From NCBI GenBank assembly GCA_003516025.1, contig CP023991.1, positions 300,001 to 332,000 on the forward strand: a stretch of DNA of 32,000 nucleotides, given 5' to 3'. A program made the position numbers and the translations under genes. The first letter of the stretch is position 1, and every line of letters begins with the position of its first letter. This document shows, in pieces, positions 1,510-24,136 of this stretch. This DNA is from Candidatus Saccharimonadota bacterium (GTDB lineage: Bacteria > Patescibacteriota > Saccharimonadia > Saccharimonadales > UBA4665). The notes below the pieces were generated by a model. The model was not told the origin of the DNA and ran no database searches. It saw only the letters and a list, made by a program, of their open reading frames with translations.

Positions 1510-2844
1510 ATGTTAGATAAAGCAAAAAGCGCGTTAGTCACTGGGGCAAATAAGGGCAAGGACATTGCTTCCATTGCCACTAAAGGCTCGAGCAAAGTTA
1601 AGGGCAAATTATTGTCATTCCGCCAGGACAGCGACCTGACACCTGAAGATGTGTTGATCGCGCGGGATTATATTAAAGCCTACTGGCCGAAGCTCGAGCG
1701 ATACCACCCCAAGGATGATGAAAGCCTCATTGGCCTACCAAAGCCGTTCTTGGTGCCGTCATACGCTGAAGGCCACGAGTTTGATTACGATGAAATGTTT
1801 TATTGGGACAGTTACTTCATGGTACAGGGCATGATGGATGAGCAGCATAAAGAGCTGGTTATGGGTATTCTTGAAGACCTGGTCTACCTGTTTAAGCGCT
1901 TTAAAGTAATTCCCAATGCCTCACGGCTCTACATGACGGCCCGTTCGCAACCACCGCTGCTCACGAGCTTTATCTTCGATGTCTACCAGGCCTATGATCC
2001 CGGCAAAGACTGGCTGAAGGATCATATTGATGTCGCTCAAAAGGAGTACGAAGTCGTCTGGATGGGTACCCGTAAGCCAAATGCCCGCCTGGTACACGAA
2101 GGCCTTAGCCGTTATTACGACTTCAATTATCTGCATGATATCGCCGAAGCCGAGAGTGGCTGGGATATGACGCCGCGCTTTAACCGCAAGGCCCTTAACT
2201 ACCTGCCGGTTGATCTTAACGCGCTGTTGTATAAGTATGAGACCGACTTCGCCCGCGCCGCCCGCATATTGGGCAACAAAAAAGAGGCGGAAAAGTGGGA
2301 CGAAGCCGCTGAAGCCCGCAAAAAGACTATGAACAAGCTGATGTGGGACCGGTTGCGCGGGTTGTTCTATGACTTTAATTATAAGAAGAACAAGCGCGGT
2401 AATGTCAGCTCGCTGGCCACTTATTTCCCGATGTGGGCCGGTGCTGTGTCGGAGCAGCAGGCAAAGCAGCTGGTCAAGTCGCTGAAGCGCTTTGAAAATA
2501 AAGGCGGCCTAGCGACTACCGACGCCCTGCCGATCGGCCAGATGGTTATTCCATCTCTGCCCACCCAATGGGCCTACCCGAATGGCTGGGCGCCGTTGCA
2601 CTTTATAGTGGTAAAGGCTCTGGAACGTTACGGCTACCATGACGATGCCCGCCGCGTCGCAACCAAGTGGATTAAATGCAATTTAGCCTGGTACAACGAG
2701 CATGGAGTATTCTTGGAAAAGTACAACGTAGTATCGCCAGACCGGCCGCCAGCTAAGGGTGTGTACCCGTCACAGACCGGTTTCGGCTGGACCAACGCCG
2801 TCTTTGAGCGGCTGTGCCAGGATTACGTCGACAAGCGGGCTTAA
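1510..2844 (+). CDS. Trehalase (glycoside hydrolase family 37), no signal peptide
   Basis: 444 aa. GH37 signatures: EMFYWDSYFMVQG, RSQPPLLTSF, ESGWDMTPRF, QWAYPNGWAPL, SQTGFGWTNAV (compare E. coli TreA/TreF). Confidence 0.9.
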   Translation: MLDKAKSALVTGANKGKDIASIATKGSSKVKGKLLSFRQDSDLTPEDVLIARDYIKAYWPKLERYHPKDDESLIGLPKPFLVPSYAEGHEFDYDEMFYWDSYFMVQGMMDEQHKELVMGILEDLVYLFKRFKVIPNASRLYMTARSQPPLLTSFIFDVYQAYDPGKDWLKDHIDVAQKEYEVVWMGTRKPNARLVHEGLSRYYDFNYLHDIAEAESGWDMTPRFNRKALNYLPVDLNALLYKYETDFARAARILGNKKEAEKWDEAAEARKKTMNKLMWDRLRGLFYDFNYKKNKRGNVSSLATYFPMWAGAVSEQQAKQLVKSLKRFENKGGLATTDALPIGQMVIPSLPTQWAYPNGWAPLHFIVVKALERYGYHDDARRVATKWIKCNLAWYNEHGVFLEKYNVVSPDRPPAKGVYPSQTGFGWTNAVFERLCQDYVDKRA

Positions 2845-2968
2845 AAGGTGAATTTGCACGTGGGGCGTAGATACTTGGATGTGGGTTACTAGACAAGTTG
2901 CTTCAAATTAAGGTACGATAAAGCTGACAATAAGCATAAGAAGGGTAATCTTTTAGATATAAAAGCTT

Positions 2969-4696
2969 ATGGCAGCACGACTTCCTACTCCCGGCGGTGA
3001 TGATAATGCCTGGGGTGTTATCCTCAACGATTTTTTGGGTCAGGCACATAATTCCGACGGCTCGCTAAAGCAGCTATCGCAGTCCCAAGTTGATGGCCTT
3101 GTTGTAACATTGGACCACAAGGTCAATAGTGATGACTTAGCAGACGTTGCAACCAGCGGATCCTATGTAGACTTAATCAATCGGCCAAGTATTCCTACTG
3201 AAGCGCACGAAGTGGGGGCTGTAGCCTCGGATCAATTAGACGATGACATTACAGTATTGGTAAATGATACAGATTCAGCTACGAGCGGTGCTTTACATAC
3301 GGCTTTTGTAACCAAAGATGTTGTGACGTCATTAAGCCAAAATATGCAGGCAACGGCCGCACAAAGCGCGGCATCAGCCCACCAGCCGGTCGGTTTGCCG
3401 AATTCAGTGACGATTAGTAATACTACTACGGTGTCACCGTTAATTAGTGCTAACTTTGCGGCCGAAGATCTCGCAGTAGGCGACGTTATACAAATTTATT
3501 GCACCGGAACTTTTTTAAATACCAGTGGAACGGCCGTAACTCTGGCTCCAAATGTTTCGTATGGGTCGTCTGTTCAGGGAGGTCCTGGTAGTTTCGCTGC
3601 GTCACCATTACCGTATGTATGGTCCACTGAAGTCAGGTTGGTAGTGAACGCGGTTGACGCCCAGGACATGTACTGCCTCTTTTCGGTGGAAACTCCTACA
3701 GGGCCGGAACGCTGGGTTACGCAGTTTAGCGCTACTCAATCTTTATCCGTCAACTCATCGCTGACATTTGCCATCAAGCTTGGTACGGCAAGTACGTCGG
3801 CCGTATTTACTATGACAAGCGGATGGATTAACCGATTGCCACCATCATCTCAGCAGGTATCGCCACCGTTATGGTTTGCGGATTACGACCTGGTGGGCAC
3901 GAATGGTACGGGCACGGTACAGGGTGTATGGTATCGAGAACAGGAACCTAACAGCGTAAATGCCAGTATAAACCGCATTTCCATAGTACCGGCAGTCCAG
4001 GTGCCAGGTGCCGGCGCTTATAAGCCGCTGGGCAATGCGATGCGGGTCGAGCTCCATCCTTATTCTACTTCGAACCCGGGAACCAGTGAACCGGCCGATG
4101 GTGATGTACAGGGAGGTTCGTATAACCGGGCTGAGTGCTATGACCGTTATCCAACAGGTACAGCCAGTAGTACGCCGCCTGCCGACTGGCCAGATCCAGT
4201 TGGATCAGAACGTTGGTACGGCTTCAGTGTTTTCTTTCCTGACGATCACATTTTTGCAACAGACTCGACTTGGTTTACCTTGACGCAGTGGAAAGGGTAT
4301 CATGGCGGGTCTCCGCCCCTAGCAATAGAACTAAACCGGCAAACACTGCGTTTTGGTGGTACGAGAGGGCCCAGCCTGCCGGGTTACAATCTGATGACCG
4401 TAACGGCCGGCAAGTGGTACAAAATAGTCGTTGGAATTAAATGGTCTACCCAACCGGCTGTCGGCTGGGTAAACGTGATTGTTAACGACCAGGAGCTCAT
4501 CCCGCGCTTCTACACCGACACTATGGATACATACGGCGGCACAGGAGACCTGAATGCTGATCCAATATACCTTAAACAGGGTATCTATCGATCTAAAGAT
4601 TGGTCGGTGACGCATGTGCTGCACTTTGGTAATATGGTTGTCGGGCGCCATCGTGGAGATGTCGAAAGCAAATTAAACAGCGTGCTAGGAGCGTAA
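2969..4696 (+). CDS. Phage tail-fibre-like protein with a C-terminal polysaccharide-lyase-type (PF14099-like, concanavalin fold) domain
   Basis: 575 aa. The N-terminus PTPGGDDNAWGVILNDFL and the SGSYVDLINRPSIPT motif resemble tail-fibre or minor-tail proteins. The C-terminus WFTLTQWKGYHGGSPPLAIEL...GKWYKIVVGIKWS...GWVNVIVNDQEL...IYLKQGIYRS fits the polysaccharide-lyase jelly-roll pattern. No signal peptide. Confidence 0.6.
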   Translation: MAARLPTPGGDDNAWGVILNDFLGQAHNSDGSLKQLSQSQVDGLVVTLDHKVNSDDLADVATSGSYVDLINRPSIPTEAHEVGAVASDQLDDDITVLVNDTDSATSGALHTAFVTKDVVTSLSQNMQATAAQSAASAHQPVGLPNSVTISNTTTVSPLISANFAAEDLAVGDVIQIYCTGTFLNTSGTAVTLAPNVSYGSSVQGGPGSFAASPLPYVWSTEVRLVVNAVDAQDMYCLFSVETPTGPERWVTQFSATQSLSVNSSLTFAIKLGTASTSAVFTMTSGWINRLPPSSQQVSPPLWFADYDLVGTNGTGTVQGVWYREQEPNSVNASINRISIVPAVQVPGAGAYKPLGNAMRVELHPYSTSNPGTSEPADGDVQGGSYNRAECYDRYPTGTASSTPPADWPDPVGSERWYGFSVFFPDDHIFATDSTWFTLTQWKGYHGGSPPLAIELNRQTLRFGGTRGPSLPGYNLMTVTAGKWYKIVVGIKWSTQPAVGWVNVIVNDQELIPRFYTDTMDTYGGTGDLNADPIYLKQGIYRSKDWSVTHVLHFGNMVVGRHRGDVESKLNSVLGA

Positions 4697-4702
4697 ATAC
4701 TT

Positions 4703-5566
4703 ATGCAGTCATTCACTCACACCCCGGCCCCTGTTAGTATGCAAGTGGTCGTTCATGGCAGTAATGCGGCAACGCAACGTCCTAGCGGCGCCGTGGCTGT
4801 TTACTGGGTGGGCGCAGTTATGCCAACCAATGCAATTGCCGGTGATTTATTAAATATTAACGGTACCTTGTCGACGATTGCAGTGCCGCCAGCTGTCGGC
4901 TCTCCGATAGCCTGGTTTGATTTTCGGCAATATGACGGCAGCGGGATCCTTGCTTCCCGAATTGGCTCATTTATAGCAACGGTTTATGGTACGCCAGCTT
5001 ATACTGCAGGCTCTAATGTCGCCATTACCGGAGGATCGCAGTACATTGCTATCCCCAATGACCCGGCGTGGAATCCTGACACCACTGGATCACTTACGGT
5101 TATCGCTATAACTAATGAAGCTGTTTACGGCAATGGCAAGACCCGCTGGTTCGCGTCCCACAGAGCTGCCGATGCAGATGGGACGCCAGGATGGGGTTTT
5201 GGGCGCGGATCGGCCAGTCCTTACGCTGTTAATTTGACGGTCCGGGACAATGTGAGTTCACAAACCGTTACAAATGGTACGGATAGTGTAGCGGGATATC
5301 AGGCAAAAGCCGCAATTATACAGCCAGCTGGCAGCCATGGAATTGTAGCCGGTTCGCAAACGACTACGGCAGTTTCAACTGTTACGGGCTCCCAAAATAA
5401 TATGGCTCGTTTGATCCTTGGCCTCCGATATGACAATCCGGAGGCGCTCACTGGCCAGGCGCATTCCAACCTTACTTCTTACCGGGGACTGCTAGTGTAT
5501 AACTCGGCCCTGACGCAAGCACAAATAACTGATTATGCCAACGTAGCTGGCGCCGGACCAATATAA
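4703..5566 (+). CDS. LamG-like (concanavalin/Laminin_G_3-type) domain protein
   Basis: 287 aa, 6 nt after the previous stop. The C-terminal LILGLRYDN...YRGLLVYNSALTQAQITDY is the usual ending of LamG-type jelly-roll domains found in phage and surface proteins. Confidence 0.5.
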   Translation: MQSFTHTPAPVSMQVVVHGSNAATQRPSGAVAVYWVGAVMPTNAIAGDLLNINGTLSTIAVPPAVGSPIAWFDFRQYDGSGILASRIGSFIATVYGTPAYTAGSNVAITGGSQYIAIPNDPAWNPDTTGSLTVIAITNEAVYGNGKTRWFASHRAADADGTPGWGFGRGSASPYAVNLTVRDNVSSQTVTNGTDSVAGYQAKAAIIQPAGSHGIVAGSQTTTAVSTVTGSQNNMARLILGLRYDNPEALTGQAHSNLTSYRGLLVYNSALTQAQITDYANVAGAGPI

Positions 5567-5637
5567 CAGAGTATGTTATTCGTTGTCTTCGATGCCTAAG
5601 CGCGTTACACTAACAGTACTTAAGGGAGTGAAGCACT

Positions 5638-6396
5638 ATGGCTGGTCTTGTAATATTTTTAATCATTGTTATCCTGATTTTCATCCTTTCAGGCATTAAA
5701 ATTGTTAACCAGTACGAGCGCGGCGTCGTACTGACGCTTGGTAAATTTACCGGGCTTCGTGATCCAGGTTTGCGGATAGTTATTCCTATTTTTCAGCAAA
5801 TTACTAAAGTTGATATCCGCTCCCGTCCTATCGATGTGCCCGGCCAGGAAATCATCACCCGTGATAATGTTACCGTTCGGGTTGACGCCGTGGTATATTT
5901 CCGCGTTACCGATGCCGCCAAGGCTGTCCTGGAGACCATTAATTATATCTCTGCTACCAGCCAGTTCGCCCAGGCGGCCCTGCGCGACGTTTCAGGAAAT
6001 GCTGACCTTGACGATGTCCTTAGTAAGCGCGAGCAAATCAGCGAGCAAATCAAAATTATTGTTGATGCCGAGACCAGCAAGTGGGGTATCGACGTTGAGA
6101 ACGTTAAGATTCAGAACGTTGAGTTGCCACAGGAGATGAAGCGGGCCATGGCCAAGCAGGCAGAGGCTGAGCGTGACCGCCGCGCTAATATCATCAATGC
6201 TGACGGTGAAAAAATTTCAGCACAGGCGCTAGCCGAAGCCGCAGCCATGCTGGCCGCTACGCCAGGCGCTATGAACCTGCGTACGCTTAACACTTTGGAA
6301 CGCATTAGCACCGAACCGTCACAGAAGACTATCATGATGTTCCCCGTCGAACTTATCGATGCTATCCGGGGCATTGCCGGAAACGTACGCAAGTAA
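5638..6396 (+). CDS. SPFH/band 7 (stomatin/prohibitin-like) membrane protein
   Basis: 252 aa. N-terminal TM, then IVNQYERGVVLTLGKF...ITRDNVTVRVDAVVYFRV...LRDV...WGIDVENVKIQNVELP, and an Ala/Glu-rich coiled coil. Confidence 0.9.
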   Translation: MAGLVIFLIIVILIFILSGIKIVNQYERGVVLTLGKFTGLRDPGLRIVIPIFQQITKVDIRSRPIDVPGQEIITRDNVTVRVDAVVYFRVTDAAKAVLETINYISATSQFAQAALRDVSGNADLDDVLSKREQISEQIKIIVDAETSKWGIDVENVKIQNVELPQEMKRAMAKQAEAERDRRANIINADGEKISAQALAEAAAMLAATPGAMNLRTLNTLERISTEPSQKTIMMFPVELIDAIRGIAGNVRK

Positions 6397-7374: not shown

Positions 7375-7450
7375 GGCTCTTTAGCTCAGTTGGTAGAGCA
7401 GAGGCCTGAAGAGCCTTGTGTCCCCAGTTCGAGTCTGGGAGGAGCCACCA
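7375..7450 (+). tRNA. tRNA-Phe (GAA), CCA encoded
   Basis: Hand-folded cloverleaf: GGCTCTT/AGGAGCC acceptor, GCTC-AGTTGGTA-GAGC D arm, GAGGC-CTGAAGA-GCCTT anticodon arm, CCCAG-TTCGAGT-CTGGG T arm. 76 nt. Confidence 0.95.
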
Positions 7451-7455
7451 AAAAA

Positions 7456-7491
7456 CCCATTTCTTGAATATTTCGGGAAGTGGTTTTTTTT
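7456..7491 (+). terminator. Rho-independent terminator after tRNA-Phe
   Basis: CCATTTC/GAAGTGG stem (one G-T pair) followed by T8 (7484-7491). Confidence 0.6.
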
Positions 7492-7526
7492 ATGCCCGGA
7501 TTGCGCTTACTTTGTAAACATGAGCG

Positions 7527-7985
7527 GTGTATGATGTAGCTACAATGTGGCATCCGGAATCCGGCACTAAACTGATACTTGAGGACCCGCAGGGACGAAT
7601 TCTAGCCTGCTTGCGCGACAATGACCCGACCATTCCATATCCCGGAAAGTGGGACTTGCCCGGCGGTGGCGTAGAGCCCCACGAGACATTATTGGAATGC
7701 GGCCACCGGGAGCTATTCGAAGAGTTTGGCCTGCAAGACGTTCCTTTAGCCATGCTAGACCAGATTGAGAGTAGGTGTACGCCCGGTAAGATCATGGGAC
7801 GGGCCTGGGGTAGGCTAACGGCCGTACAGGTCGGCAGCATCGCGTTTGGACCCGAAGGGCAGCGTTACGACTTCTTTTCTGTACCGGAAATCGCCGAACT
7901 GGATTTTGTACCGCAGCTGCAGGAGTACGTGCTAACGCTGCATGGACTGGCTAACAGGGTAAAACTACTTGAACGAACGGCCTAA
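7527..7985 (+). CDS. NUDIX hydrolase (second copy)
   Basis: Nudix box GGGVEPHETLLECGHRELFEEFGL. The track start at 7527 is GTG. An ATG at 7545 (MWHPESG...) is an equally plausible start. Confidence 0.8.
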   Translation: MYDVATMWHPESGTKLILEDPQGRILACLRDNDPTIPYPGKWDLPGGGVEPHETLLECGHRELFEEFGLQDVPLAMLDQIESRCTPGKIMGRAWGRLTAVQVGSIAFGPEGQRYDFFSVPEIAELDFVPQLQEYVLTLHGLANRVKLLERTA

Positions 7986-7997
7986 GTCTAGTACAAT
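7969..7997 (+). promoter_or_regulatory. Sigma70-type promoter for tRNA-Gly, embedded in the 3' end of the NUDIX gene
   Basis: TTGAAC (7969-7974), 17-nt spacer, TACAAT (7992-7997), 20 nt upstream of the tRNA. Confidence 0.45.
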
Positions 7998-8017
7998 CAG
8001 TTCCGTTGTACTGTTAT

Positions 8018-8094
8018 GCGGGTCTAGCTCAGTTGTTTAGAGCGCGTCCTTGCCAAGGACGAGGCCAGGGGTTAGAGTCCCCTGACCCGCACCA
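8018..8094 (+). tRNA. tRNA-Gly (GCC), CCA encoded, non-canonical D/T loops
   Basis: GCGGGTC/GACCCGC acceptor, GCTC-AGTTGTTTA-GAGC D arm, CGTCC-TTGCCAA-GGACG anticodon arm, AGGGG-TTAGAGT-CCCCT T arm. 77 nt. Confidence 0.9.
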
Positions 8095-15039: not shown

Positions 15040-15591
15040 ATGATAAAACCAAAACTTAAAATTCTTCTATCAGTCTACTTGTTTAGCCAAATCGGCTTCT
15101 ACATTTTCGCGCCACTCTACGCCTTGTTTGCTCAGGGCCTGGATATGGAGCCGAAGGACATCGCCCTGCTTTGGAGTTATTACTCATTGACCATGGCGGT
15201 GTTCATATTGATCTTTGGTAAGCTTGAAAACAAACGAAAAAAAGAAAAGTTTCTGGCATTCGGCATGCTGCTGTTCCCAATCGCCGATCTCCTGTTTTTG
15301 GGAGTCCATACGCAGCTGGCGTTAGCGGGAGTATTGACGATAAACGCGCTGGGCGGCGGCATAACCATTCCGGCGATAAAGACACTATTCGCGAAAAACG
15401 AAAACCGGGGAAGGGAAAGTGAAGAGTGGTCTTGGATGGACAGTGGTAATATGTTTTCGTCTGCGATCGGCGCGGGCATCGGTGGGCTTATTCTGAGCCT
15501 GGATGGTTTCCGCGGCTTATTTTTGACCATGGCTGCCGTACAGTTTCTAGCCTTTGTGCTGGCGCTAAAATCCATAACGGTCAGGCGCTAA
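15040..15591 (+). CDS. Half-size MFS-like membrane protein (about 6 TM)
   Basis: 183 aa. It resembles one six-helix half of an MFS transporter (FAPLYALF..., GKLENKRKKEKFLAFG, GGGITIPAIKTLF). TATAAT at 15024-15029 lies only 10 nt from the ATG. Confidence 0.5.
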   Translation: MIKPKLKILLSVYLFSQIGFYIFAPLYALFAQGLDMEPKDIALLWSYYSLTMAVFILIFGKLENKRKKEKFLAFGMLLFPIADLLFLGVHTQLALAGVLTINALGGGITIPAIKTLFAKNENRGRESEEWSWMDSGNMFSSAIGAGIGGLILSLDGFRGLFLTMAAVQFLAFVLALKSITVRR

Positions 15592-17960: not shown

Positions 17961-18040
17961 CCTTCCGAGCAGAAGCACGCGGCCCTATGTGGCGGCCCAT
18001 TGTCTGCTCGCTCGGTAGACAAAGACAGAGGGAACCAACC

Positions 18041-19495
18041 ATGGCCGTCGCAGCCGAAATGCATACTTATGAACCTGATTACCGGCTGGTTGATGCTATT
18101 CCGGAAGCGTATCAGCAGCGGCAGGCAGTGCGCGTGCAGGCCGAAGCGGTACTAGAGGAACGCCGCGACCGAATGACGGCTGGCGAAGTAATGGTGTCGG
18201 TCGATGTCTTGTCGACTGCTCACCGGGTGCTTGCTGCCGGAAGATGGTACGGCCAGGGAAGTCCGCAACAAATCGAGCTATTTGAAGGTTTGAAACTAGA
18301 TAGCCACCGCGCTTTAGCCGAATGGTACCGTAAAAACACCGCGGAATATTTCCCGCCTGAACGTCATACTTTCGACGACGCGACGCGGGATTTTTATTCT
18401 AATGGATTGTCGACCGGCCGGATGACCGAAAACGGCATCGTGCCAATTCCGGACAGTCCCGAAGATGAAGCCCGCCGCGTTAACGAGCATGTCGAAGAAC
18501 GTACGCCGCAGATACTCCGCAGCCTGGGCTGCGTTGCTATTGGTACCGACAAAATCAGGACAGTTTCCGAATGTACCGATAAGGCGATTGTCGATTATAA
18601 CGATGATGTGGCTGCCAAACGGCCAGCACGGAGTTCGGGCGGACAAGTGCCGAAAATCGCCAAGCTGATGATACGGGACATGGGCTTTGACGCCGATAGC
18701 AGCGACCGGTTCCAGGAGCAGGTCGCCATTAGCGGGTTGCTGGTAACGCATGAGATTATCCAAAAGACCCTGGAACGCGCCGGATTAGCCGTAGCTCATA
18801 TGGATAAAACTGAACTGCACGCCGCCCAAATACTGGCCCGCGATGACCTGATGGATTTTATACGCCGCCTCGATACTGTTGCTAGCGAGGAATGGTGTAC
18901 CAGCGTATTCATGGGCGAGCAAGTCTCGCAGGACCACCCCAAGAATTATGAGACGTTCCGCCAGGAGGCGCTGCGCCGGCAGGAGGGTTTGTGGGACATA
19001 GCTGAAACTGTCGCCCAGTTTGTGCTCGATCTGGCCCGCGACAATGTAGACAGGCGCGCTGCTCCGGCTATGGTAGAAAAGTTCATCAAATTGCAATTAC
19101 TGGAGCTGGGCAAGGAAAGTACCGAAATTGCCGAACATATGTTCGACCGAGAAACAGCCCAAGGGCTGCAGGAAGTCGCGCGCCTGGAGTCAATCGGCAA
19201 GCAGGAGCTGGCCTTTGAACTGATGCGGCTGGTAACCGAAGCCGCGCCGAACGATGGCTACTGCGGGGCGGGCAGCTGCGGCCTTGAAGCGGTTAACGTA
19301 TATAGCGAATCGGGTCAGGCCCTGGCAAAAAAAGTTGGTGCCGCGCCTGGTGATATCGTGGTGCGTGATACCGAACGCCGCTGCCGCTGCGGCAAAAAGG
19401 CCATTGTTTACTCCTATACTACAACGCGGGTTAATAAGTACTGCACGGCATGCACGGCGTTCGAGTCCAAGGTATCGGTGGCGGCTACTGCTTAA
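18041..19495 (+). CDS. Hypothetical cytoplasmic protein with a C-terminal Cys cluster (function unknown)
   Basis: ATG at 18041 with GAGGGA SD 7 nt upstream. The track start at 17987 lies inside the leader. 484 aa with no TM or signal peptide. The C-terminus has Cx4C...CxC...CxxC (GYCGAGSCG, RCRCGKK, KYCTACT). Confidence 0.6.
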   Translation: MAVAAEMHTYEPDYRLVDAIPEAYQQRQAVRVQAEAVLEERRDRMTAGEVMVSVDVLSTAHRVLAAGRWYGQGSPQQIELFEGLKLDSHRALAEWYRKNTAEYFPPERHTFDDATRDFYSNGLSTGRMTENGIVPIPDSPEDEARRVNEHVEERTPQILRSLGCVAIGTDKIRTVSECTDKAIVDYNDDVAAKRPARSSGGQVPKIAKLMIRDMGFDADSSDRFQEQVAISGLLVTHEIIQKTLERAGLAVAHMDKTELHAAQILARDDLMDFIRRLDTVASEEWCTSVFMGEQVSQDHPKNYETFRQEALRRQEGLWDIAETVAQFVLDLARDNVDRRAAPAMVEKFIKLQLLELGKESTEIAEHMFDRETAQGLQEVARLESIGKQELAFELMRLVTEAAPNDGYCGAGSCGLEAVNVYSESGQALAKKVGAAPGDIVVRDTERRCRCGKKAIVYSYTTTRVNKYCTACTAFESKVSVAATA

Positions 19496-19523: not shown

Positions 19524-20486
19524 ATGTCTACCAGTGATAAAACGGTACTTTCGGTAGTTATTCCGGTACATAACGAAGCGGACAATATACAGCCGCTCTA
19601 TATGGTGCTTGATCCCGTTCTCAAACACGTGTCAAAAAATGCCTATGAAATCATTTTTGTTGACGATGGCAGCCACGACAGTACTGCGCGCGTAATCGCT
19701 GATCTGCACGGCATGAACGGGCGCGTCAAGCTGCTGAGTTTGTCTAAGAACTTCGGCAAGGAAATCGCCCTGGCAGCCGGCATAGCCGCGGCTTCGGGAG
19801 AGGCGATTATCCTAATGGATGGCGATGGACAGCATCCCGTAGACCGCATTCCTGATTTGGTATCAGCCTGGAAGCAGGGCTGGCAAGTGGTAGTTGGTGT
19901 ACGGACACATAACAGGAACGAAGGCCTGGTTAAGAAATATGGTTCTAAATTGTTTTACGCTCTGTTCAACCGCCTGTCTGGACAGCGGATGGTACCTGGT
20001 TCCAGTGATTTCCGGCTTATTGACCGCGCGGTACAGCAGGAGTTTATAAAACTGAACGAGCCGCAATCGATTACGCGCGGCCTGATCGATTGGCTTGGTT
20101 TTAAACGCGCCTATGTCACGTATGCTGCCCATCCGCGGATGCATGGCCCGGCGTCCTACACTTTTCGTAACCTCAGTAAATTAGCTGCCCACAGTTTCGT
20201 ATCGTTGTCGCCCGCGCCGCTCTACGCTTTCGGCTATCTCGGGCTGGCCATTACCGGAGTATCATTCGTCCTTGGCCTGGCGGTACTGATAGAGCAAATA
20301 ATACTTAATGATCCGCTCAGCTGGGACTTTACCGGTACCGCTATGCTTAGCATACTCGTGCTATTCCTGGTTGGGTTAACTCTTGTGTCGCAAGGTGTAC
20401 TGGCGCTCTATATTTCGTACATCCACACCCAAAGCAAAGGCCGGCCGCTGTATGTTGTTAACCACCGCGAATCGCGCGGCCTGTAG
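19524..20486 (+). CDS. GT2 polyprenol-phosphate glycosyltransferase (ArnC/GtrB/DPM1-like)
   Basis: 320 aa. LSVVIPVHNEADNI, VDDGSHDST, NFGKEIALAAGIAAASGEAIILMDGDGQHP, and two C-terminal TM helices. Confidence 0.85.
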   Translation: MSTSDKTVLSVVIPVHNEADNIQPLYMVLDPVLKHVSKNAYEIIFVDDGSHDSTARVIADLHGMNGRVKLLSLSKNFGKEIALAAGIAAASGEAIILMDGDGQHPVDRIPDLVSAWKQGWQVVVGVRTHNRNEGLVKKYGSKLFYALFNRLSGQRMVPGSSDFRLIDRAVQQEFIKLNEPQSITRGLIDWLGFKRAYVTYAAHPRMHGPASYTFRNLSKLAAHSFVSLSPAPLYAFGYLGLAITGVSFVLGLAVLIEQIILNDPLSWDFTGTAMLSILVLFLVGLTLVSQGVLALYISYIHTQSKGRPLYVVNHRESRGL

Positions 20487-20574
20487 CGGCTTAATCTGTA
20501 CTTTGGGGTACCGGCTCAGTTATACTTAAGGGCAATGTACAGCACTCTTATGTAATGGGTTCTTACTGATTTTT

Positions 20575-23220
20575 ATGCCGCGCACCAAACTAACCGATCA
20601 AGCTACATCAACCACAGCCAAAAAGGCCCGGAAATCGTCTGGACGGTCTTCGTCGCAGTCTCAGGCCGAAGTTGTAGCTAAGGAAGCCCCTGCCGGTTGG
20701 CGGCAACGGATTAGTGGCCTGCTGCGGTCTGGCCGCTTTCAAAAAATCTTTGCCTGGACGAGTTTCGGTGTACTGATGCTTACCTCGGTATTCTGGGCGG
20801 TGCTGGGAGCCCGGCTGCATGAAAATAATGCCGACCAGTTTATCGACGCCTACTTGTTTGACGACGCAAGTACCTTTACGAACGCGCTTTTTCCAGGCGC
20901 GCATACTTTTCTGATTAAGTGGCCGGTATTTTTGCTGATGCAATTATACGGGTATCACACCTTTGTGTTTATGGCGGCTACTGTCCTTATGGTATTGCCA
21001 ACGGTTGCCCTGTTGGCTTACCTGATCCGAAAAATCGATCCCCGGCCGGTCGTGTTTGGTGTGGTATGTCTCGCCCTGTCCCTGGTCTTGCTGCTGGTAC
21101 CGGCTCAACCATATCCAGGAGCGCTGTTACCAGCTAACTTTGCGATGACAACTACCCGTAACCTGGAGTATGCCTTGTTTGTCTGGTGTCTGTACAGGTT
21201 CGTGTCTGCCCGTCCACATATTCGCCAGTGGACATTCTGGCTTCTCGCCGGCCTGATGGCCTTGGTTATTGCCAGTGATAAGCTGTTCGCCGTTCTCTTA
21301 CTGGGCGGCGCGGCGGCTGCTCTGGTTGGTTATGCCGGCGTGTTGCGCCGCCGATACGAACTGCGGACTATTCTGCGGTTAGGCGTGCTGGGGATAATGG
21401 CCTTCGCGCTAGCGAACGTGCTGCTGCTGGTACTGTCGCGTACCGGACTGACGAACATCGTTAATGAGGGCAGTACCTCGCCCTATCCGCTCGTACATTC
21501 CGCAGGCCAACTCGCTCAAGGGTTGCTCTACGCTGCTGGCGCTCTGCTCACTAATATGGGTGCCAATCCAATCCATGACAACCTGGTCGTTCGTGACATT
21601 CCGGCCGCGCTGCTGCAAAGCATAATGAGACCGAGTTTTATCGCCTACTTCGCTAACTTTTTAGTGGCTGTAGCGGGTCTGTACGCTATTGTCCGCGTAA
21701 TCCTCAGCCGCACCTCGGATGCCCCCACTCGCCTAACGGTACTGCTCTGCGGCTCCACACTGGCAGCTTTAGCCGTTTTTGCGTTAACCGACCATTATTA
21801 TCCGGTTGACGCCCGCTATGTCGCCATTGAATTGTTCGCTGTATTTATCGCACTGGCCACCTACACGCGCGGCCGTCAGCTGCGGGGCAGGGCAATTATG
21901 GCGTTGTCCGGGCTGCTTGTGCTGCTCCTGCCAATTGGTATGGCTCAGGCATGGCATGAATATCAGCTAGGTAGTAACGCGACGGCCGCTGATACGAGCC
22001 GGACAGTAACAATTGCCAAAATTTTAGACCGCAATCATATTTCACGGCTACTCGGAGATTACTGGAAAATCACGCCGGTAAAATCACGCACGGCGACTAA
22101 CATCACTGTGGCGCCGGTTGATGACTGCCAGACGCCGCACCCGGTGCTTAACAGCAAAGCCTGGTTTACTATGCCCAAATCGACGCCTTCCGCGCTGTTA
22201 CTGCAGCGTGACGGTACCGATGAAGCTACGTTTAACGGCTGTAGTCTGGCTCGCATTGCCACCTTGTACGGCGCACCGACCGACCGGGTTGTTTTAGATA
22301 GTAATCCGCAGCCACCTTATTTGGCCCAAACGATGCTCTTATTGTACGGGAATGGGACTGAGCCGCTGTCTGAGCAGAAGGCTGCCGATACGCCCAAACC
22401 TCTGGCGGCTCCTGTGGTCGCGGCGCTCCGCGAAACCGGTAACTGTACCGAAACCTCCCTGAACGTTGTCGCCCATCAGGACGATGACCTCTTATTTATG
22501 AATCCCGATATCCTGGGTGATATCGCGGCAGGCCGCTGTATCCGGACAGTCTACGTAACCGCTGGTGATGCCGGCGCGGGCCGTGCCTACTGGCAAAGCC
22601 GCGACATGGGCGCGCGGGCGGCGTATGCCGATATGTACAATGTGCCGAGCGTGTGGCACGAAGAACGGCAGCAATTGAACGGCCGCTTCGTGACTGTCGC
22701 GACGCTCGAAGGCAGGCCTAACGTATCATTGGTGTTCCTGCATTTGCCGGACGGAAACCCCGAAGGTAGCGGTTTCGCGGTGAGTAACCACGAAAACCTG
22801 GCAGCCCTAACCAGTGGCGCCATACACGAGATGCATAACGTAGAAGATGGCAGCAGCTACACCAAAGACCAACTGGTAAGTGATCTAAAGACGATTATGG
22901 ATGTAGATGCCCCAACCGTTATTCGCAGCCAGGGATCTGATAACGCGTTCGACGGCGACCATAGCGATCACCATGCTGTCGGCCAGCTAACGGAGCTGGC
23001 GCGCCAGGAGTACAATAACGGGCCGCAAGTTGTGCGCTACATTGGCTATCCCAATAAGGTCTGGCCAGTTAACCTTACGGACGATCAGGTGACCCTAAAG
23101 GAACGGGCATTCTTGGCCTACGCCAAATTTGACGGCGCTGTCTGCCAGTCGGCCTTTGACTGTCAGCAGACGTATACCTACGGCAATTATTTGATCCGCC
23201 AGTATTCAAGCCAGCCATAA
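20575..23220 (+). CDS. Polytopic membrane protein (GT-C/PMT_2-like N-terminal half, inferred) fused to a PIG-L/LmbE-family deacetylase domain
   Basis: 881 aa. About 12 hydrophobic helices lie between residues about 55 and 460, with an acidic first loop (ENNADQFIDAYLFDD). The C-terminal domain has VVAHQDDDLLFMNPD...VYVTAGDAG and DGDHSDHHAVG, which are PIG-L zinc-site motifs. Confidence 0.7.
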   Translation: MPRTKLTDQATSTTAKKARKSSGRSSSQSQAEVVAKEAPAGWRQRISGLLRSGRFQKIFAWTSFGVLMLTSVFWAVLGARLHENNADQFIDAYLFDDASTFTNALFPGAHTFLIKWPVFLLMQLYGYHTFVFMAATVLMVLPTVALLAYLIRKIDPRPVVFGVVCLALSLVLLLVPAQPYPGALLPANFAMTTTRNLEYALFVWCLYRFVSARPHIRQWTFWLLAGLMALVIASDKLFAVLLLGGAAAALVGYAGVLRRRYELRTILRLGVLGIMAFALANVLLLVLSRTGLTNIVNEGSTSPYPLVHSAGQLAQGLLYAAGALLTNMGANPIHDNLVVRDIPAALLQSIMRPSFIAYFANFLVAVAGLYAIVRVILSRTSDAPTRLTVLLCGSTLAALAVFALTDHYYPVDARYVAIELFAVFIALATYTRGRQLRGRAIMALSGLLVLLLPIGMAQAWHEYQLGSNATAADTSRTVTIAKILDRNHISRLLGDYWKITPVKSRTATNITVAPVDDCQTPHPVLNSKAWFTMPKSTPSALLLQRDGTDEATFNGCSLARIATLYGAPTDRVVLDSNPQPPYLAQTMLLLYGNGTEPLSEQKAADTPKPLAAPVVAALRETGNCTETSLNVVAHQDDDLLFMNPDILGDIAAGRCIRTVYVTAGDAGAGRAYWQSRDMGARAAYADMYNVPSVWHEERQQLNGRFVTVATLEGRPNVSLVFLHLPDGNPEGSGFAVSNHENLAALTSGAIHEMHNVEDGSSYTKDQLVSDLKTIMDVDAPTVIRSQGSDNAFDGDHSDHHAVGQLTELARQEYNNGPQVVRYIGYPNKVWPVNLTDDQVTLKERAFLAYAKFDGAVCQSAFDCQQTYTYGNYLIRQYSSQP

Positions 23221-23489: not shown

Positions 23490-23563
23490 GGCGCCTTGGC
23501 GGAGCAGTTACGCAGCGGTCTGCAAAACCGCGTAGACGGGTGCAACTCCCGTAGGTGCCTCCA
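23490..23563 (+). tRNA. tRNA-Cys (GCA), CCA encoded, discriminator U
   Basis: GGCGCCT/AGGTGCC acceptor (one G-T pair), GCGGT-CTGCAAA-ACCGC anticodon arm, ACGGG-TGCAACT-CCCGT T arm. 74 nt. Confidence 0.85.
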
Positions 23564-23572
23564 AACAATTTA

Positions 23573-23660
23573 GGGCGAGTGGCGGAATTGGTATACGCGG
23601 CGGACTTAAAATCCGCTGGCCTTAACAGCCTTGAGGGTTCGAGTCCCTCCTCGCCCACCA
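23573..23660 (+). tRNA. tRNA-Leu (UAA), long variable arm, CCA encoded
   Basis: GGGCGAG/CTCGCCC acceptor, GCGGA-CTTAAAA-TCCGC anticodon arm, 16-nt variable arm, GAGGG-TTCGAGT-CCCTC T arm. 88 nt. Confidence 0.95.
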
Positions 23661-23704
23661 CTGATTCTTGCTATTATTTTTGTGTACCTAAGGGGGTTGC
23701 GACA

Positions 23705-24136
23705 ATGGAAACCAATGCTAACCACGATAATTGCCCATTTTGTAACCTCGATGACCGTATCCTTAAGCAGAACGACTATGCCCAAGTATTTTTGAGCGAC
23801 CCGCATAAAGTTGCCGGCCATTTACTGGTTACGCCCAAACGCCACGTCGAAAAGCCATGGGAGTTAACTAATCTGGAACTAACAGCTATTTTTGACCTCA
23901 TTTTCTGGATAGAGCAGAAGCTTATCGGCAAACTGGGTGATGGCTTCGACATCCGCCAGAACTACCGCCCGTTCGTTAATCAGAATCGTTTGAAGGTGAA
24001 CCACACGCATTTTCATGTTATCCCACGCTCTGAGGGTGACTATATTTATGAAATTTCCGAGCAGTACGAAAAAGATCTGTTCGTTGAACTCGACGACATG
24101 GAACGCGACGCCGTCGCCGATATGCTGAAAGACTAA
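23705..24136 (+). CDS. HIT (histidine triad) family protein
   Basis: ATG at 23705 (METNANHDNCPFC...). The track ORF start at 23555 overlaps the tRNAs. Histidine triad VNHTHFHVIPR. Confidence 0.85.
   Translation: METNANHDNCPFCNLDDRILKQNDYAQVFLSDPHKVAGHLLVTPKRHVEKPWELTNLELTAIFDLIFWIEQKLIGKLGDGFDIRQNYRPFVNQNRLKVNHTHFHVIPRSEGDYIYEISEQYEKDLFVELDDMERDAVADMLKD

Follow-up and report, generated by a model that had tools for sequence, protein, structure and literature searches.

How, and for which acceptor, would a sugar be processed by a bacterium that encodes a polyprenyl-phosphate glycosyltransferase next to a polytopic membrane protein ending in a PIG-L deacetylase domain, and that belongs to the Saccharibacteria/Patescibacteria, a group generally believed not to have lipid A, the acceptor of the Arn, Flm and Lgm pathways? 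This question is raised by a stretch of 32,000 nucleotides from a Candidatus Saccharimonadota bacterium (GenBank assembly GCA_003516025.1, contig CP023991.1, positions 300,001 to 332,000 of the forward strand), which was here analysed over its full length and is referred to as the window. The system consists of two neighbouring genes, taken from the open reading frame (ORF) calls:

19524..20486, + strand: gene of a family 2 glycosyltransferase (GT2) of the GtrB type, 320 aa
20575..23220, + strand: fusion gene, 881 aa, encoding a GT-C-like membrane domain, a middle domain and a PIG-L domain

A first-pass annotation of the same DNA had placed two genes at these positions, and both ORFs were recovered exactly, on the + strand. 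They are separated by a gap of 88 nt, in which a terminator-like site is absent. Besides an identical sequence, the protein search returned 106 homologues of the fusion protein with 32-58% identity, down to E 1.5e-78, and nearly all named sources among them were Candidatus Saccharibacteria or Saccharimonadales. Because of these 106 homologues, the GT2 and the fusion are regarded as real genes and not as chance ORFs.

The evidence makes it fairly probable that the locus encodes a transmembrane glycosylation system of the Gtr type to which an external de-N-acetylase has been added, with deacetylation taking place before transfer and a hexosamine being placed on a surface acceptor. At the cytoplasmic face, the GtrB-like GT2 would move an N-acetylhexosamine (HexNAc) from a UDP-sugar to polyprenyl (undecaprenyl) phosphate. 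The lipid-linked sugar would subsequently be flipped, in most relatives by a GtrA protein that is encoded adjacently or fused. At the outer face the N-acetyl group would be removed by the PIG-L domain, and the GT-C-like domain with its 11 transmembrane (TM) helices would hand the sugar over to an acceptor on the cell surface, which would then carry a hexosamine with a positive charge.

The GT2 is composed of two parts:

19545..20198, + strand: GT-A catalytic domain (cytoplasmic) and juxtamembrane region, aa 8-225 (alignment to GtrB)
20220..20414, + strand: two C-terminal TM helices, aa 233-297 (hydrophobic stretches aligned with TM1 and TM2 of GtrB)

The protein matches the Pfam family Glycos_transf_2 (PF00535) over aa 10-170 with an E-value of 5.8e-30 (104.9 bits vs a cut-off of 23.3), and aa 8-313 are collinear with residues 27-327 of the GtrB chain sll0501 (PDB 5ekp; E 1.7e-60); the E-values against the structures of ArnC and DPMS were 4e-33 and 3e-15, respectively. 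The residues D94, D96, R122, D157 and R200 are those named for the active site of GtrB (PMC4728340), comprising the DxD metal site, the catalytic Asp and the Arg residues for the acceptor phosphate, and all five correspond, residue by residue, to D99, D101, R127, D162 and R205 of the window protein. The predicted DxD core of a polyprenol-phosphate GT2 was thus found as D99-G-D101, and the predicted two C-terminal helices lie at aa 233-297 within the full-length GtrB alignment. The designation as ArnC-like is correct for the fold, but ArnC orthology was rejected, since the score of the second-best NCBIfam model, ArnC (PRK10714), was 131.6 bits, far under the cut-off of 529. The top NCBIfam model, PgfS (NF047588), was matched over its full length (1.9e-63, 214.6 bits), and orthology was likewise rejected here, as the equivalog cut-off is 500. 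Sequence similarity identifies the protein as a polyprenyl-phosphate glycosyltransferase of the type represented by GtrB, CsbB and PgfS, and as a member of the PI-GT family. Since it is about equally similar to GtrB (glucose) and to PgfS, which belongs to an N-acetylgalactosamine (GalNAc) pathway, homology does not fix the sugar, and HexNAc is proposed solely because a de-N-acetylase is present. Glucosamine or galactosamine, named in the first-pass annotation as the sugar added, is likewise a proposal.

The following features were assigned to the fusion protein:

20575..20745, + strand: K/R-rich disordered cytoplasmic tail, aa 1-57 (model confidence and K+R count)
20746..21954, + strand: GT-C-like polytopic domain, aa 58-460, 11 TM helices, N-terminus in and C-terminus out (model, hydropathy, Foldseek)
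20827..20835, + strand: N85-A86-D87, opening the first external loop, with the candidate catalytic acid (invariance, position after TM1)
21955..22434, + strand: extracytoplasmic middle domain, aa 461-620, alpha/beta (confident in the AlphaFold model)
22435..23217, + strand: extracytoplasmic PIG-L/LmbE zinc-hydrolase domain, aa 621-881 (Pfam, Foldseek, relatives)
22474..22488, + strand: H634-Q-D636-D637-D638 (AHQDDD), the HxDD part of the zinc site (LmbE motif, invariance)
22957..22974, + strand: D795-H796-S-D798-H799-H800, second motif with the third zinc ligand H799 (LmbE motif, invariance)

An AlphaFold model of the 881-aa protein was built from 69 homologues and reached a predicted local distance difference test score (pLDDT) of 92 and a predicted TM-score (pTM) of 0.87. 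In the N-terminal tail the pLDDT is <50 for aa 1-32, and 13 of the 57 residues are K or R (mean 12.3 across the 69 homologues). The model and hydropathy together gave 11 TM helices. With the N-terminus placed inside, the mean K+R density in the homologues is 0.26 in the inside loops vs 0.05 in the outside loops, and by the positive-inside rule the membrane domain is predicted to be N-in, C-out. The residues N85 and D87, invariant in the homologues, stand directly after TM1, the helix of which ends at residue 84. They belong to 13 invariant polar residues of this domain (N85, D87, H110, K115, R195, N196, E198, Y199, D235, H407, D412, R414 and Y415), all of which are located in outside loops. 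In GT-C enzymes the active site usually has an acid right behind TM1 and basic residues in external loops further on (PMC8035078), and by analogy with the usual position of this acidic motif a catalytic role may be assigned to D87.

Foldseek searches of the PDB with the full model returned DPY19 (E 1.1e-3, 648 columns), PglB, STT3 and Pmt4. When the membrane part alone was used, STT3, PglB, Pmt4, AftB and DPY19 were found with probabilities of 0.84-1.0 and query-normalised TM-scores (TMq) of 0.39-0.48, and every match with a probability >= 0.84 was a GT-C enzyme; one further entry, a yeast oligosaccharyltransferase, reached 0.69. Transporters, channels and G-protein-coupled receptors (GPCRs) scored TMq 0.09-0.21 at probabilities < 0.3. 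What the membrane domain shares with the GT-C class is its topology, the position of the acidic motif and the linkage of its gene, and the use of a polyprenyl-phosphate sugar donor is indicated by proxy, namely by the genomic linkage to the PI-GT and to GtrA. It would be expected to be the transferase of the system, although none of the described GT-C sequence families (PMT, PMT_2, YfhO, STT3 and others) includes it. The family is small: an exhaustive HMMER search yielded 320 clusters at E <= 1e-3 among 1.84 billion representatives, the best 150 of which were inspected. A second large protein search with the alignment of the membrane domain gave 4 proteins only. The viral fold search in BFVD returned uncharacterised phage proteins only.

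The membrane domain is followed by a soluble, conserved middle domain of ~160 aa, in which C518 and C556 are present in 69/69 homologues. It is retained together with the membrane part in variants that do not have the PIG-L domain, and it possibly binds the acceptor. The PIG-L domain is the sole Pfam match in the fusion protein (PF02585, aa 629-807, 47.5 bits vs a cut-off of 28.2). The LmbE motif HxD1D2 plus H provides metal ligands and the general base (PMC4101496). In the fusion protein, HxDD accounts for two metal ligands and the general base, and H634, D636, D637 and H799 are invariant in the family; the positions equal to H634, D636, D637, H796 and H799 are all kept in 303/308 members of the wider clade. 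The spacing of 162 residues between metal ligands 2 and 3 is slightly larger than the 97-148 quoted in PMC4101496. By Foldseek the domain resembles LnmX (5bmo), BshB (2ixd and 6p2t), MshB, TT1542 and teicoplanin deacetylases with a probability of 1.0 and target-normalised TM-scores (TMt) of 0.43-0.60, and diacetylchitobiose deacetylase was also among the fold matches, while phmmer found no match for the PIG-L region among the PDB sequences at E <= 0.01. Pfam score, metal motif and the Rossmann-like LmbE fold place the domain in the PIG-L superfamily.

Most of what the first-pass annotation had said about this protein is consistent with these results. The membrane part of about 460 residues proved to be polytopic over aa 58-460, with 11 helices instead of about 12; the acidic first loop is represented by the invariant N85 and D87; and the PIG-L/LmbE zinc motifs AHQDDD and HSDHH are found where it had put them, in the last ~250 residues, in a domain scoring above the Pfam cut-off. 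The layout of membrane part and PIG-L domain was recognised, but the separate middle domain and the K/R-rich tail were missing from the description. It had also called for structural comparisons, and these came out as anticipated for the PIG-L region (probability 1.0); for the GT-C fold the scores were moderate.

Four independent lines predict that the PIG-L domain is extracytoplasmic. It is preceded by an odd number of TM helices obeying the positive-inside rule and should therefore be outside. The external region contains six cysteines, all present in 69/69 homologues, and among the 308 clade members both C624 and C655 occur in 272, neither in 8 and C655 alone in 28, while C624 without C655 was never seen; the pair C857/C863 is kept in 306/308. 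Such a pattern is that expected for disulfides and supports the outside location. The nearest PIG-L relatives (40-56% identity), bacterial and fungal, have signal peptides or a single N-terminal anchor helix, and some of them carry partner domains of an extracellular type (F5/8 type C, DUF7402, PKD); the clade's signal peptides, its anchors and its conserved pairs of cysteines together argue for an extracytoplasmic domain. Finally, in fusions of GtrA to PIG-L a fifth TM helix follows the four helices of GtrA, by which the PIG-L domain is brought outside. The predicted face is thereby the same as that of the invariant residues of the GT-C-like domain, and not the opposite one, which the first-pass annotation had named as a ground for rejecting its pathway. 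To our knowledge, the characterised members of the LmbE/PIG-L superfamily are soluble in the cytoplasm or face it.

The clade itself extends beyond the Saccharibacteria (e.g. P0302, P0305, P0314, P0333 and the locus L091). Signal-peptide forms joined to DUF7402 and F5/8 type C domains were observed in the Actinobacteria Nakamurella and Arthrobacter, and further members are a Woesebacteria form, a PKD-domain form and a secreted protein of 274 aa from Aspergillus fumigatiaffinis.

For the analysis of gene linkage, 80 loci with verified relatives of the fusion were taken from a species-level genome collection; 78 of these relatives are near full length and 2 are cut by a contig end. Nearly all of these best 80 loci are titled Saccharibacteria or Patescibacteria. 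The commonest gene order is GT2, GtrA (about 138 aa, PF04138) and fusion gene. Counts were made for the 71 loci with enough upstream sequence: the GT2 is located directly upstream of the fusion gene in 46/71, and GtrA is adjacent or fused in 49/71, as a separate gene in 45 and joined to the N-terminus of the fusion in 4. The layout of the window, in which the GT2 is followed by the fusion gene without GtrA, recurs in 11/71. The co-conservation expected of the two genes was hence observed, also for unfused versions of the system, but the notion of a two-gene module has to be extended: the pairing of GT2 and fusion stands, and the usual system has GtrA as a third gene. None of the three conditions under which the first-pass annotation expected its pathway to fail was borne out, and its interpretation is supported with corrections. 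The 546 genomes given by the pattern search were not counted as fusion carriers, as one pattern, H[QE]DDD[LI]LF, also matches stand-alone PIG-L proteins.

Among 361 proteins retrieved, the following architectures were classified:

Membrane domain, middle domain and PIG-L: 176 proteins
PIG-L alone: 94 proteins
Membrane domain and middle domain: 33 proteins
Middle domain and PIG-L: 26 proteins, several of them probably short-contig fragments
Membrane domain alone: 15 proteins
GtrA, membrane domain, middle domain and PIG-L: 11 proteins
GtrA, membrane domain and middle domain: 1 protein
GtrA and PIG-L: 1 protein

Among the half-fused and unfused forms, locus L081 encodes a 547-aa family member without PIG-L, followed by a protein composed of GtrA, a fifth TM helix and PIG-L. 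In L083 and L084 the order is GT2, GtrA-PIG-L and a polytopic protein of 531 aa (L083:3147-4742, L084:3055-4608); L087 and L088 have GT2, GtrA and a TM-anchored PIG-L beside a polytopic protein of 521-543 aa (L087:7167-8732 (-), L088:3932-5563 (-)); and in L090 a polytopic protein of 537 aa (4375-5988) is accompanied by a TM-anchored PIG-L, GtrA and GT2. The GT2 proteins of the unfused and half-fused loci are 50-51% identical to that of the window. GT2, GtrA, PIG-L and polytopic protein are therefore four functions that travel together, the PIG-L domain being joined to the flippase, to the polytopic protein or to both.

The polytopic partners in L083, L084, L087, L088 and L090 form a sister family of about 520-545 aa without Pfam match, which is always found beside GT2, GtrA and a membrane-tethered PIG-L. 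Its comparison with the membrane domain of the window was not significant (hhalign E 0.04, probability 1.3%). Four motifs are collinear between the two, namely an acid after TM1, (T/S)RN(L/I)E, (S/A)D and (A/S)RY; this collinearity is suggestive only, and homology is not claimed.

Two further observations concern the composition of the related loci. On one 7413-nt contig from the Joint Genome Institute, a 511-aa membrane part (P0099) and a 430-aa part with middle and PIG-L domains (P0242) are encoded separately; the pair is the nearest split counterpart of the fusion and reflects either a true gene split or a frameshift. Just upstream of GT2/GtrA in L008, L013, L018, L023 and L059, the gene family F19 encodes a ~320-aa member of the LPG_synthase_TM family (PF03706, 1.2e-32), which might serve as another flippase or in an accessory role.

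For the order of the last two steps, loss of the acetyl group from the flipped lipid-linked sugar, followed by transfer, is slightly favoured over the reverse. The PIG-L domain shuttles between the flippase and the transferase, the common substrate of which is the lipid-linked sugar, and this argues for removal of the acetyl group from that substrate. In Saccharibacteria, moreover, the PIG-L domain is always membrane-tethered, which was counted in favour of the same order. NaxD and ArnD, the deacetylases of lipid A amino sugars, act on lipid-linked sugars. The founding PIG-L enzyme, the de-N-acetylase of N-acetylglucosaminyl-phosphatidylinositol, also acts on a lipid-linked sugar (PMC4101496). 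The fusion forms seen (GtrA-PIG-L, GT-C-like-PIG-L and GtrA-GT-C-like-PIG-L) can be read as a series in which polyprenyl-phosphate-HexNAc is flipped first and the sugar is then handed directly to a transferase founding a new GT-C family, a step order without an earlier description; this more specific version is put forward tentatively, and we regard it as possible rather than probable.

Candidates for the acceptor are a wall glycopolymer and Ser/Thr-rich surface proteins. GT4 genes are often present in the related loci, and L085 contains a Wzm/Wzt ABC transporter cluster; both point to a wall glycopolymer. In L085:1-9504, a TM-anchored PIG-L lies between two GT2 genes, together with GtrA, GT4 and a methyltransferase, in what looks like an ABC-transporter-dependent glycopolymer cluster. 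Small genes of another type, F12, were observed directly upstream of GT2 or GtrA in L050-L053, L071, L074 and L078, and also at L081:2481-2894. The encoded proteins of 125-185 aa have an N-terminal TM helix, a low-complexity region rich in Ser, Thr and Pro, and a C-terminus with a LANTG motif, a hydrophobic stretch and a K/R tail resembling a sortase signal, and O-glycosylation might use them as acceptors. The window has no gene of this kind, and no Ser/Thr-rich gene adjoins the module there.

Several results weigh against the proposed system or parts of it. The structural likeness to GT-C enzymes is moderate, with E-values of about 1e-3 to 1e-2 and TM-scores <0.5, and it finds no counterpart at the level of sequence families: searches of Pfam and NCBIfam with the full fusion protein gave no family for the membrane domain, the best Pfam match of 21 membrane domains at E <= 10 was PMT_2 with E 0.93 in one member, a sub-threshold match to DUF6056 (3e-5) was found in one homologue only, and the profile of the 69 homologues returned from all PDB sequences only chance GPCR matches at E 0.3-0.5. 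GtrB itself is a glucose transferase. A GtrA gene was not found in the 32-kb window by tblastn and by a hidden Markov model of 53 GtrA proteins; it may lie outside the window in the genome of roughly 1 Mb. An adjacent GT2 is lacking in 25/71 related loci. Lastly, the secreted soluble relatives of the PIG-L domain, the fungal one included, cannot reach a lipid carrier of their own cell, which argues for glycan-bound substrates.

The last point leads to the alternative that deserves most attention, namely that the same components work in the reverse order, with the GT-C-like domain transferring HexNAc and the tethered PIG-L domain then deacetylating the acceptor-bound sugar, by analogy with the external polysaccharide deacetylases PgaB, IcaB and Agd3. 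It would explain why some of the nearest relatives of PIG-L are soluble and secreted, among them enzymes with domains of the carbohydrate-binding type and a fungal protein; the ~160-aa domain that the window protein has between membrane part and PIG-L is consistent with it. So is L085, where no polytopic partner is in view and the glycopolymer cluster around the TM-anchored PIG-L includes a Wzm/Wzt ABC transporter. We nevertheless consider it rather unlikely. If the substrate were the finished product, there would be no obvious purpose in the fusion of PIG-L to the GtrA flippase that some genomes have beside a polytopic protein without PIG-L; the constant membrane tether in Saccharibacteria and the use of lipid-linked sugars by the founding PIG-L enzyme, NaxD and ArnD also speak for deacetylation first.

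The two remaining explanations depart further from deacetylation before transfer. The polytopic domain might be an anchor, a scaffold or a transporter for an external PIG-L that remodels an envelope or host glycan, for example the N-acetylglucosamine (GlcNAc) of peptidoglycan or the surface of the host actinobacterium, with GT2 and GtrA forming a separate pathway. The moderate structural scores of a membrane domain that no sequence family puts in GT-C would fit this explanation, and so would the stand-alone secreted enzymes of the PIG-L clade and the 11/71 related loci in which neither GT2 nor GtrA is nearby. A mere anchor, however, would not retain 13 invariant polar residues on the outer face, including an acid after TM1; the sole solved structures resembling the fold are GT-C enzymes; and the linkage to GT2 and GtrA holds across fused, half-fused and unfused forms, which makes this explanation improbable. 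Still less credit is given to the idea that the PIG-L domain is an amidase or another hydrolase, possibly cleaving or recycling the lipid-linked intermediate. The LmbE superfamily does include non-deacetylases such as Mca and GalB (PMC4101496), and the hydratase GalB was among the fold matches, but the complete HxDD+H metal site of a deacetylase is invariant here, and the best fold matches are deacetylases of the GlcNAc type (LnmX, BshB, MshB, diacetylchitobiose deacetylase and the teicoplanin deacetylases).

The system favoured here, with deacetylation preceding transfer, has relatives among known pathways. Three-component systems include GtrA/GtrB/GtrC of serotype-converting phages and CsbB-GtcA-YfhO, which places GlcNAc on teichoic acids (PMC8035078), as well as GacI/J-GacK-GacL, which transfers GlcNAc onto the group A carbohydrate (PMC8035078). 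They share with the window system a membrane-bound GT-A enzyme loading C55-P, a GtrA-type flippase (present in most relatives of the window system), a polytopic transferase with a conserved acid in an external loop, and operon-clustered genes. What sets the window system apart is the external PIG-L deacetylase, which is fused to the transferase here and, in relatives, may be joined to the flippase or to flippase and transferase together; the polytopic protein is not YfhO, PMT_2 or GtrC, GtrA is missing from the window, and the host is a Saccharibacterium. In the Pgf system of Streptococcus mutans, consisting of PgfS (GT2), PgfE and PgfM1/M2 (GT-C, YfhO-type), PgfS is the best NCBIfam match of the window GT2. 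The Pgf system acts outside the cell, where GalNAc is attached to surface proteins in regions rich in Ser and Thr (PMC11092751). One subclade of the related loci, in which a Ser/Thr/Pro-rich LANTG protein is encoded directly upstream of the GT2, is reminiscent of it, whereas Pgf works without a deacetylase and the membrane protein of the window is not of the YfhO type.

Amino sugars are attached to lipid A by ArnC/ArnD/ArnT (4-amino-4-deoxy-L-arabinose, L-Ara4N), by FlmF2/NaxD/FlmK of Francisella (galactosamine, GalN) and by LgmA/C/B of Bordetella (glucosamine). The chemistry is comparable, as a GT2 loads an N-acylated amino sugar on undecaprenyl phosphate, the amine is set free by a deacylase, and transfer of the sugar by a GT-C enzyme adds a positive charge. 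NaxD is YdjC-like and ArnD CE4-like, and both act at the cytoplasmic face before flipping. The window deacetylase, in contrast, is of the PIG-L family, is predicted outside and is fused to its partner, whereas three separate proteins are used there; the parallel to the lipid A pathways drawn in the first-pass annotation therefore fails for the place of deacetylation, which here must be outside, after flipping. The nearest amino-sugar pathway is instead the GalN modification of mycobacterial and corynebacterial arabinogalactan by PpgS (GT2), Rv3632 (small membrane protein) and Rv3779 (GT-C). There, too, bacteria without lipid A make a polyprenyl-phosphate-HexNAc, flip and deacetylate it, and use a GT-C enzyme to attach the hexosamine to a polymer of the wall. 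The window GT2 differs in being only weakly similar to PpgS (1.9e-8, N-terminal part only), and the mycobacterial pathway is not known to include a PIG-L enzyme. The LmbE/PIG-L deacetylases (PIG-L, MshB, BshB, TkDAC and teicoplanin deacetylases; CE14) have in common with the window domain the HxDD+H site and the fold; the characterised ones are, as far as is known, soluble in the cytoplasm or face it, and the window domain belongs to a clade predicted to be extracytoplasmic.

The other genes of the window are unrelated: trehalase, polysaccharide lyase, SPFH, NUDIX, alcohol dehydrogenase, DUF2975, tRNAs, HIT, methionyl-tRNA synthetase, TatD and aminotransferase. Since no envelope genes besides the GT2/fusion module occur among the remaining genes of the 32 kb, the module is regarded as self-contained in the window. 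A 502-aa ORF directly upstream of the GT2 (17987-19495, +) has no Pfam or NCBIfam match and a Cys-rich C-terminus (CGAGSC ... CRCGKK ... CTAC), and related loci do not have it beside the module. In the region 23490-24136, the fusion gene is directly followed by tRNA-Cys and tRNA-Leu; the 193-aa HIT ORF (GTG start at 23555) overlaps them, so its true start is probably an internal ATG (METNANHD...). Trehalase (PF01204, 1.2e-84) and an adjoining 575-aa protein with a polysaccharide lyase domain are encoded at 1510-4696 (+) and represent carbohydrate-scavenging functions, which are of interest for an epibiont of Actinobacteria. Between 8001 and 12000 the G+C content is 0.38-0.43 vs about 0.50 elsewhere; the region lies just after tRNA-Phe and tRNA-Gly (7375-8094), its small ORFs include AAA_18, DUF218 and AHSA1-like proteins, and it may be a horizontally acquired island. 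The sole match of a 183-aa ORF (15040-15591, +), to MFS_1, covers 1-170 of the 347 profile positions, so that the ORF is likely to be a pseudogene or a truncated gene for a transporter.

The kind of system described here is known; its new features are an external PIG-L deacetylase built into the system, a GT-C-like family not classified so far and a clade of extracytoplasmic PIG-L proteins. Literature searches turned up neither a report of GT-C/PIG-L or GtrA/PIG-L fusions nor a function for DUF6056 or DUF7402. Two uncharacterised families are thereby flagged, a GT-C-like polytopic family without Pfam model and an extracytoplasmic PIG-L clade reaching Actinobacteria and fungi. Saccharibacteria are ultrasmall epibionts with genomes of roughly 1 Mb, and the surface chemistry that mediates their attachment to the host is almost unknown. 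A conserved and repeatedly re-fused system that likely places a cationic amino sugar on the surface is a testable handle on this envelope.

Beyond this group, the fusions place the PIG-L domain outside, between flippase and transferase, and thereby suggest where and by which kind of enzyme lipid-linked HexNAc is unmasked in monoderms. For the GalN modification of mycobacterial arabinogalactan this question is explicitly open (PMC9671496), and the Saccharibacteria system offers a candidate enzyme class and a location for the deacetylation step. If the tentative reading of the fusion series holds, the extracytoplasmic PIG-L clade would supply the class of enzyme so far lacking for the attachment of amino sugars in bacteria that have no lipid A, and would indicate of which type, and where, the deacetylase in the GalN pathway of mycobacterial arabinogalactan is.

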